Of a stretch of DNA of 20,211 nt, positions 12,778 to 13,979 are shown one piece after another (within the stretch, counting starts at the first letter, position 1; every line of letters starts with the position of its first letter). This stretch comes from a virus (Duplodnaviria > Heunggongvirae > Uroviricota > Caudoviricetes), in IMG/VR virus record IMGVR_UViG_2548876938_000006. One strand, given 5' to 3'. A model generated the notes under the pieces. The model made no database searches. It saw only the letters and a list, made by a program, of their open reading frames with translations, and was not told where the DNA came from. The translations under genes were made by a program, and so were the position numbers.

Positions 12778-13101
12778 ATGGATGCACAAACACGCCGCCG
12801 CGAACGTCGCGCAGAGAAACAGGCTCAATGGAAAGCAGCAAATCCCCTGTTGGTTGGGGTAAGCGCTAAACCAGTTAACCGCCCTATTCTCTCGCTGAAT
12901 CGCAAACCGAAATCACGAGTAGAAAGCGCACTGAATCCGATAGACCTTACGGTGCTGGCTGAATACCACGAACAGATTGAAAGCAACCTGCAACGTATTG
13001 AGCGCAAGAATCATCGAGTTTGGTATAGCAAGCCAGGTGAGTTCGGTATAACTTGTCAAGGAAGACAAAAGGTTAAAGGGGAATCCATTCCATTGGCATG
13101 A
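12778..13101 (+). CDS. N: Antiterminator N
   Basis: 107 aa, MDAQTRRRERRAEKQAQWKAANPLLVGVSAKPVNRPILSLNRKPKSRVESALNPIDLTVLAEYH..., matching remembered lambda N. Start at internal ATG 12778 with AGGAG SD. Confidence 0.95.
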   Translation: MDAQTRRRERRAEKQAQWKAANPLLVGVSAKPVNRPILSLNRKPKSRVESALNPIDLTVLAEYHEQIESNLQRIERKNHRVWYSKPGEFGITCQGRQKVKGESIPLA

Positions 13102-13109
13102 GGTACGTA

Positions 13110-13979
13110 ATGAAGAAGATTGATTACAAGTCCATACCAAAACCAATAGACTCAGCATCAGAGCGAAAAAAACACAAAAAAGAGGCTGAAAAATTAGCAA
13201 ATTATATCAGTTTTATTAGAAACAATGCTCACGGCGATGGCGACAAGAAGTTGCTTTCAGATGCTCGGACCCAAGCGTTCGGTATACTTCGTAAGCAGAT
13301 GCAATATCGTCTTCATCCTGGCTACATAATTGAAATTCGCCCTACTGAAAGACAATTGTTCTTATTAAACTCTGTCTTTGACTTTGTAAACGTAGTTGGA
13401 GATCTTATCGACAGGTCTGTAGATAAGGATCCTGATACAAATAGTTTTCTTCTAACAAATAAAGAATACTTATATGGTAAATTCGGTATAAACGGATGGC
13501 AAAAATATGTACGCTTCTTACGTGCATTCGTTGATGCGTATAAAAATTCCGACATGATTTATACATATTTGCCTGGTGGTGATAATTGTACGCTTTCGGC
13601 AGACAATAGAATATTCATACCTGTACTTGGTCTTGGGCTGATTAATGCAGTAAATGAAAAAGATGTTATAATTGTTAAGCAGTGGCGAAAATATGAGGGA
13701 TATAGATATCTGCCATGCTTTGATATATTAAAAATACAGAATAAATTCTATGTAAAAATTAAATATAAAGAAGATATTTTCTTCCTCAGAAAAAACATAG
13801 ATCTTTTACAAGAACTTTCTGGTACAATAGATGTCATCTTAGGTTCTAGGTTTATAAAAGAACTGAAAGAAAGCAGGTCTTTCTCTCGTGTAGAGATAAG
13901 CGAGTCAGAGTTATGGGGTATATCAAATAATCCTGTAAACCACGCTCACCAACGAAACCCAAACAAAAAGTGGTCATAA
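13110..13979 (+). CDS. Unknown ~290-aa soluble protein immediately downstream of N
   Basis: Long ORF with K/I/N/Y-rich, AT-rich codon usage. Starts at 13110 (MKKIDYK, AGGT SD) or at 13098 overlapping the N stop. No TM segments and no recognised motif. Replaces the lambda sieB/ral segment. Confidence 0.65.
   Translation: MKKIDYKSIPKPIDSASERKKHKKEAEKLANYISFIRNNAHGDGDKKLLSDARTQAFGILRKQMQYRLHPGYIIEIRPTERQLFLLNSVFDFVNVVGDLIDRSVDKDPDTNSFLLTNKEYLYGKFGINGWQKYVRFLRAFVDAYKNSDMIYTYLPGGDNCTLSADNRIFIPVLGLGLINAVNEKDVIIVKQWRKYEGYRYLPCFDILKIQNKFYVKIKYKEDIFFLRKNIDLLQELSGTIDVILGSRFIKELKESRSFSRVEISESELWGISNNPVNHAHQRNPNKKWS

Follow-up and report, generated by a model that had tools for sequence, protein, structure and literature searches.

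A phage 434 early-operon protein with the Nun arrest peptide behind a predicted TnpB-like body

Nun, as found in phages HK022 and HK75, is the closest described counterpart of the protein analysed here. In the cryo-electron microscopy (cryo-EM) structure of the arrested elongation complex (PMC5386594), only Nun residues 87–109 are ordered, and all known arrest determinants lie there. Specifically, H93 and R94 contact upstream DNA, N97, H98 and H100 touch RNA, template DNA and the rudder, R102 pairs with the C-terminal carboxylate, and residues 101–109 touch RNA, the nontemplate strand and the downstream duplex; Nun minus its last 13 residues neither binds nor arrests polymerase. Two further systems bear on the comparison, namely the TnpB/Cas12f/Fanzor proteins (IS200/IS605 OrfB) and the TldRs, which retain the TnpB fold overall, though their RuvC has decayed or lost a part, and which use adjacent guide RNAs and block initiation. 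Here we describe CPT_434_48, a gene in the early left operon of a 20,211-nucleotide stretch of DNA from a virus of the Caudoviricetes (IMG/VR record IMGVR_UViG_2548876938_000006; hereafter the window), whose product ends in the Nun arrest peptide. Over the 882 bases of the query, the match to Escherichia phage 434 (OL657226 and OL657227) is 99.9% identical, and we refer to the product as the 434 protein. GenBank labels it 'Nun C-terminal peptide-containing protein', so the Nun-like tail was already spotted by the annotators, while RefSeq E. coli genomes label it 'hypothetical protein'; the phage 434 genome announcement (PMC9119081) does not discuss the gene.

The last 14 residues of the 434 protein, VNHAHQRNPNKKWS, are identical to residues 96–109 of HK022 and HK75 Nun. 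The initial annotation had found no recognisable motif in the protein, a statement that this peptide overturns. The match to the PHROGs profile phrog_5632 ('Nun-like transcription termination factor') is limited to residues 274–293 (the last 20), at profile positions 93–112. The tail was searched against phage records by tblastn; the same 14 residues, with an acidic stretch before them, are shared with the Nun proteins of HK022, HK75, mEpX1, mEp235, O276 and PA28/Stx1a phages. Like nun, CPT_434_48 lies in the pL operon and shares the 3′ DNA module. The 434 protein differs from Nun in its length (289 against 109–112 residues) and in having a predicted folded TnpB-like body in place of the boxB-binding arginine-rich motif (ARM). 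No such motif appears in its alignment with Nun. A lysine-rich helix, ERKKHKKEAEKLANY, which by eye resembles RRRERRAEKQAQW of lambda N, was considered as an ARM and rejected, because the homologues at 68% and 42% identity do not keep its basic and aromatic (Tyr) residues.

No part of the protein is better conserved than the tail, and the residues kept there are those that matter in Nun. Across Nun and the homologues P0003 to P0007 and P0035 (37–68% identity), V96, N97, H98, A99, H100, R102, K106, K107 and W108 are invariant. Leaving out V96 and A99, these are the positions mutated in PMC5386594 for their contacts with polymerase or nucleic acid, while the variable tail positions are 101, 103, 104 and 105, N103 being the 'unimportant' control of that study. 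The proportion of nonsynonymous differences (pN) is 0.03–0.18 in the tail versus 0.19–0.41 gene-wide. Furthermore, the tail codons of 434 and of the loci L005 (68% identity), L012 (47%) and L003 (about 42%) differ synonymously nearly everywhere (GTA/GTT/GTG, AAC/AAT, GCT/GCG/GCC, CAC/CAT, AAA/AAG), and the DNA 3′ of the stop codon in these three loci is unrelated to that of 434. The synonymous divergence, the low tail pN and the unrelated downstream DNA together argue that the family inherited the tail from its ancestor and that purifying selection on it is strong. In the predicted structure, tail and linker fall below a predicted local distance difference test (pLDDT) score of 50 from residue 249 on, pointing to disorder, as expected of a peptide that threads into polymerase.

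A neighbouring observation concerns nun itself. In phage PA28 (NC_041935), and likewise in Stx1a-converting phages (LC6454xx), the full 112-aa nun open reading frame (ORF) is open (2249–2587 of locus L006; MLMVKKTIYVNP...RDRRRIARWEKRIAY...NHAHQRNPNKKWS). The PA28 RefSeq record annotates only the last 45 nun codons, as 'Nun-like', and gives the name 'anti-termination protein N-like' to a 112-aa ORF that overlaps nun in another frame. The latter is probably a mis-annotation, and PA28-type Shiga-toxin phages seem to carry an intact Nun.

Structure prediction suggests a fold for the body that precedes the tail. An AlphaFold2 model built from three sequences was unusable (pLDDT 44.7), so an alignment of 14 sequences that includes remote homologues was used instead. 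The resulting model (pLDDT 75.6, predicted template modelling score 0.73) is mostly confident over residues 10–245 and disordered over residues 249–289. In Foldseek searches, the top PDB match is ISDra2 TnpB (E 0.04, probability 0.98), followed by dCas12f, and the top BFVD matches are giant-virus 'transposases' of the TnpB/Fanzor kind. We then aligned ISDra2 TnpB, its sequence checked against the PDB, with 11 phage-encoded TnpBs and compared this profile with the family alignment by hhalign. The comparison places residues 69–222 of the 434 protein onto ISDra2 residues 4–176 in 144 collinear columns (score 30.0, E 8.7e-4), a stretch of TnpB that spans strand 1, the REC helices and the WED strands. 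By comparison, 20 column shuffles reach at most 18.0 and the reversed alignment 10.4. A profile search of PDB sequences returned noise only. Since the methods agree, while the model is a prediction and the sequence statistics are weak, we regard a TnpB-like WED-REC body over residues 69–222 as probable and not as proven.

The likeness to TnpB ends with the WED domain. Shared elements of the predicted WED-REC-WED architecture are a first strand followed by P-x-x-x-Q-x-x-x-L, an 'LPxLG' strand and a 'gkyyvsi' strand. In contrast, the 434 protein lacks RuvC, the zinc-finger/TNB domain, the DED triad, any Pfam match, transposon ends and an associated guide RNA. hhalign gave no confident alignment to RuvC or the zinc finger past WED, and the protein stops about 70 residues beyond it; for the same reason, the SRVE/SRVDF motif was rejected as a RuvC remnant. 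Residues 1–65 are an extension specific to the phage subgroup and missing from most remote homologues. The body may derive from the WED-REC half of TnpB/Cas12 or may merely have the same fold.

CPT_434_48 is a real gene under purifying selection. The plus-strand frame 13098..13979 is uninterrupted (293 aa in its long form), as the initial annotation had it; the start proposed there does not hold. Because a Shine–Dalgarno sequence lies just inside the long form (Table 1), the PHROG profile begins at long-form residue 5 and the homologues start at the equivalent position, translation almost certainly begins at 13110, 8 nt beyond the stop of N. The frame thus abuts the end of N as had been noted, and translational coupling to N is plausible. 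The protein has the same length in homologues at 68%, 47% and 42% identity, and pairwise comparisons across homologues give saturated synonymous differences (pS 0.77–0.89) versus a pN of 0.19–0.41. The AT-richness pointed out initially is also borne out, with a GC content of 0.31–0.37 against 0.45–0.53 in N and gam/bet. The gene occurs in 83 of 5426 complete E. coli genomes at 97.6–100% identity, always on the chromosome, and carriers include O103:H2, O111 and O121 strains. In PHROGs it matches phrog_12139 over its full length, a family without assigned function, and Pfam and NCBIfam scans of the 434 protein returned zero matches.

In OL657226, the early left operon reads, on the plus strand, cI434, hex, oL/pL, nutL, N, CPT_434_48, terminator, ea10, cIII, kil, gam, bet and exo. 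CPT_434_48 therefore stands between N and ea10, where lambda holds sieB, orf28 and ral, and the initial assignment to the sieB/ral slot is correct. Like those genes it is dispensable cargo of this slot; unlike them it shows no sequence relationship to them (its only PHROG hits being phrog_12139 and the Nun tail), and RefSeq places sieB on the opposite strand. At all 25 loci inspected, the gene lies directly behind a pL antitermination device, a lambda-type N in most cases and an HK022-type putL in two. At 21 IMG/VR loci, the gene stands at one and the same distance behind N, next to four repressor types (cI434 at most of the loci, others at three), which argues that N and the gene travel as a module. 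In L005 the gene follows N, and in L012 it follows an 88-aa protein of the N36 family. L003 and L056 (both about 42% identity) have no N; there cI is followed by a leader with a putL nearly identical to that of HK75/HK022 and then by the gene, in nun's own position. The 434 gene differs from nun in following N, in a phage with lambda-type nut sites.

Taken together, these data lead us to propose, tentatively and with a probability of about 0.45, that CPT_434_48 encodes a Nun-class RNA polymerase translocation-arrest factor in which the ARM has been replaced by a nuclease-less TnpB/Cas12 WED-REC body of about 250 residues. The body would single out certain elongation complexes by a DNA sequence or by an element of the nascent RNA; like Nun 87–109, the tail would then fasten polymerase to the hybrid and to the DNA downstream, so that translocation halts. 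Since 434 itself uses a lambda-type N and nutL, the body cannot aim at the lambda-type nut as Nun does. A review reports that put-modified polymerase reads through Nun-dependent termination and that N occupies the entrance of the cavity; as the gene sits behind an antitermination device, the phage's own early transcription would probably be protected. By analogy with Nun, the likely role is exclusion of competing phages, and the superinfection-exclusion function proposed in the initial annotation gains concrete support from the arrest tail. For the 434 protein we infer polymerase binding, arrest, target choice, self-protection and an exclusion phenotype.

Several points weigh against this proposal. 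Where Nun has H93 and R94, the 434 protein has N twice, and two homologues lack the terminal Ser that in Nun supplies the carboxylate partner of R102. The tail DNA is about 96% identical to nun and runs into shared downstream DNA, which means that the tail of the 434 allele was recently exchanged by recombination. The likeness to TnpB depends on a model built from no more than 14 sequences, the other four AlphaFold2 models having scored lower; the Foldseek E-values are weak (0.04 and 2e-3), HHalign gives a probability of 23%, and none of the Pfam TnpB models (PF01385, PF07282 or PF12323) matched the 434 protein or the remote members scanned. No target element for the body was found. The PADLOC check suggested at the outset yielded no match between the 434 protein and the defence models of PADLOC-DB 2.0 at E up to 1. 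Literature searches retrieved no paper, experimental or other, on the protein; it may be called uncharacterised to that extent, its Nun C-terminal peptide having been flagged in GenBank before. Finally, exclusion would require expression in the lysogen, in which the pL operon that carries the gene is repressed. A simple plus-strand terminator scan of 12426–13098, from the end of hex to N, found none, and by sequence pRM read-through via hex into N and the gene is therefore possible in a lysogen.

The operon position also suggests a different use of the tail, general shut-off of host transcription early in the lytic cycle. Here the tail would stall any unmodified elongation complex while N- or put-modified phage complexes are spared, and the body would serve stability, dimerisation or general nucleic-acid affinity and not specific targeting. 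Several observations fit: the gene follows N in the pL operon with its Shine–Dalgarno sequence overlapping the N stop, the promoter signal upstream of it is not above chance, put-modified polymerase resists Nun with N at the cavity entrance, and saturating Nun arrests complexes that lack nut (PMC5386594). A conserved, predicted nucleic-acid-recognition body of about 250 residues is, however, more than an untargeted tail needs. Moreover, lambdoid phages rely on host polymerase throughout their development, and we know of no host shut-off by phage 434. We consider this account unlikely, though it survives better than the other alternatives.

Improbable, too, is the view that the tail is a passenger, its DNA being mainly a recombination linker between lambdoid modules and the function residing in the body alone, for instance as a DNA-binding regulator. 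The DNA does have the look of a classic mosaic joint: identity between 434 and nun begins 46 nt before the stop codon and extends about 170 nt past it, through the terminator, and a frameshift at 3001–3866 of locus L055 removes the Nun tail. This comparison indicates that the 434 allele has swapped its 3′ end with a nun-bearing phage, and the common DNA that encodes the tail is probably used as a recombination joint as well. Recombination as the sole explanation of the tail was nevertheless rejected, since diverged homologues keep it despite different codons and different downstream DNA. The conserved positions are Nun's functional residues, and remote homologues likewise keep a strictly conserved, though different, basic C-terminal tail. 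Two variant proteins were also seen, P0008, in which the first 23 residues of Bet are joined to the last 73 of a 434-type protein, and P0009, another chimera; these and the L055 variant are either rearranged prophages or assembly artefacts.

The DNA downstream of the gene belongs to a wider lambdoid stock. From about 14005 on, it is a conserved lambdoid module that in lambda lies between ral and ea10. The inverted repeat and the terminator hairpin described in the initial annotation both exist, and the RNA fold of this DNA has z = −6.1; their assignment to CPT_434_48 was rejected, because both are also present in lambda and HK75.

To place the 434 protein in a wider family, an exhaustive profile search of 1.84 billion representatives was made, which yielded 25 relatives. 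The close group consists of proteins of about 290 aa with the Nun tail. The remote group (213–326 aa, 17–26% identity) shares a central domain of about 150 residues, a basic linker, the motif S-x-S-Y-x-R-V-D-F and a different, strict C-terminus, V-x-G-G-L-P-S-L-G-K-R-R; ten remote members scanned against Pfam gave no significant match. Nun holds only a degenerate form of the pre-tail motif, FPRDVEKIEDE. Since S-x-S-F-S-R-V-E before the tail is common to remote non-phage members, these alignments suggest that Nun got its C-terminus from the CPT_434_48 family and not the reverse. Relative to the literature searched, what is new is that the tail is selectively conserved and the body TnpB-like, together with the family and its two types of tail, the members in nun position and the paralogues embedded in operons like those of bacteriophage exclusion (BREX).

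In the BREX clade (P0027, P0030, P0032 and P0033), found on independent contigs, the homologue stands between brxC and pglX with gaps of 21–34 nt. Its neighbours match BrxA, BrxB, BrxC and PglX very strongly, while the homologue itself matched no PADLOC model and no named BREX protein. Its resemblance to the 434 protein lies in the homologous domain of about 150 residues, S-x-S-Y-x-R-V-D-F and the order of body, basic linker and basic tail; it differs in its identity of 17–24%, in its GGLPSLGKRR tail in place of the Nun peptide and in its bacterial defence operon in place of a phage early operon. Another remote member lies in a defence island beside ParB_N, NYN, RelA/SpoT and DISARM-like genes. 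Other remote members stand alone on chromosomes among housekeeping genes, one of them in Dechloromonas (the sole locus from a genome scan), and the wider family is therefore not strictly linked to defence.

As an observation on these operons, the metagenome contigs L010/L017 (5128–20867), L008, L014 and L018 carry brxA-brxB-brxC-[homologue]-pglX, followed by genes for 376-aa and 423-aa proteins, HSP70 and a second methyltransferase of the MmeI/Eco57I type. A WYL regulator and an ADP-ribosylglycohydrolase gene lie upstream, and there is no PglZ within 10 kb. To our knowledge, this layout fits none of the BREX types.

Such contexts could suggest an anti-defence or restriction-alleviation role, in which the 434 protein, copied by a phage from the accessory parts of BREX, would disturb or co-opt the BREX-type methylation of the host. 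The remote homologues between brxC and pglX, the homologue by the DISARM-like set and the presence in the lambda slot of ral, whose product acts on EcoKI, speak for it. We hold this role to be very improbable, given the low identity and the different tail of the BREX clade and the stand-alone members among housekeeping genes; nor does it explain the selection on the Nun-type tail. The comparison also permits a broader conjecture, a long shot in our estimate, that the 434 gene is the tip of a RuvC-less, TnpB-derived family that delivers a short C-terminal peptide into polymerase. If so, the arrest domain of Nun would be borrowed from this family, and the target of the phage members would be set by the TnpB-like body, possibly via a bound RNA. 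Stalling of polymerase on unmodified DNA by the GGLPSLGKRR tail of the brxC-pglX paralogues would then be a testable BREX effector mechanism.

A TldR-related, RNA-guided transcription blocker, in which the body binds a guide RNA that pairs with a DNA target and the tail adds arrest, would resemble TldR as a domesticated TnpB-type protein of a temperate phage acting on transcription. In TnpB, the RuvC half helps to hold the guide-RNA scaffold, and in the 434 protein that entire half is missing. Despite the predicted fold and the precedent of TnpB repressors that prophages encode and that are nuclease-dead, their RuvC and zinc-finger domains being truncated (bioRxiv 10.1101/2023.11.30.569447), this is the least probable of the alternatives, because the 434 protein, unlike TldRs, has an elongation-arrest peptide but neither the C-terminal half nor an adjacent RNA candidate: no conserved non-coding region adjoins the gene (on its downstream side, the next gene is 45 nt away in L003 and 34 nt away in BREX loci), the structured RNA downstream in 434 is also present in lambda, which lacks the gene, and Rfam gave no match next to CPT_434_48.

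Table 1. CPT_434_48, its predicted parts and the neighbouring features, in window positions
Feature	Position	Strand	Remarks
CPT_434_48 coding sequence	13110..13979	+	289 aa plus stop
Shine–Dalgarno sequence GAGGT	13100..13104	+	overlaps the N stop TGA (13099–13101); 6 nt before ATG 13110
N-terminal extension, residues 1–65	13110..13304	+	lysine-rich; predicted two-helix hairpin (AlphaFold2 helices 16–38 and 43–65, pLDDT 83–95)
Probable TnpB-like WED-REC-WED core, residues 69–222	13314..13775	+	motifs IIEIRPTERQ..L, FLLxNK, C-[ST]-L-S, IPxLGLGLI, FxILKxxNKFYVKIKY
Predicted helical linker, residues 223–258	13776..13883	+	AlphaFold2 helices 223–244 and 246–258; TnpB would pass into RuvC here
Conserved motif ESRSFSRVEISESE, residues 254–267	13869..13910	+	S-x-S-[FY]-[SA]-R-V-[DE], then an acidic run; also in remote homologues without Nun tail
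Nun arrest peptide VNHAHQRNPNKKWS, residues 276–289	13935..13976	+	identical to Nun 96–109; predicted disordered
Mosaic segment	13935..14150	+	about 94–96% DNA identity to the HK75 nun 3′ end and downstream DNA; recombination joint inside tail-coding DNA
Inverted repeat	14031..14059	+	folds as RNA with a 14-bp stem; belongs to a conserved intergenic module of lambdoid phages, not gene-specific
Intrinsic terminator hairpin and T-run	14120..14149	+	annotated terminator; common to lambda (upstream of ea10) and HK75
nutL boxB hairpin GCCCTGAAGAAGGGC, pL leader	12606..12620	+	annotated nutL in OL657226; upstream antitermination site of the gene's operon
Gene N	12778..13101	+	107 aa, lambda-type antiterminator, immediately upstream of CPT_434_48

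Other features were noted in the window. The gene hex ('repressor protection protein'; 12022–12426, plus strand) follows cI434, and a GenBank note states that its published start codon is wrong. A longer hex ORF from 11950 overlaps the end of cI, and the annotated product starts with a hydrophobic, signal-peptide-like segment. Rfam recognises the lambda cIII thermoregulator above threshold (88.5 bits; the Rfam regions of the window are 14596–14654, 4203–4413 and 7897–8101), whereas two matches on the minus strand elsewhere in the window stay below their thresholds, IS009 with 62.8 of 117 bits and STnc100 with 41.4 of 47 bits. AT-rich patches at 1800–2400, 4600–5600 and 8200–8800 (GC 0.31–0.35), on the right of the phage map, may hold extra cargo genes.

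For decades, Nun, with its ARM and its polymerase-jamming peptide, has been a one-off. Our analysis indicates that it is no longer an orphan and that the arrest peptide looks like a portable effector. The origin of this peptide is now testable, the pre-tail motif pointing to the CPT_434_48 family as its source. If the body derives from TnpB, it would represent a new route of exaptation, in which the whole nuclease half was lost and an elongation-arrest tail was gained. The paralogues in BREX-like operons offer a speculative lead on how such systems block phages. Furthermore, about 1.5% of complete E. coli genomes carry the gene, among them those of Shiga-toxin strains O103, O111 and O121, and it may shape which phages can superinfect such lysogens.

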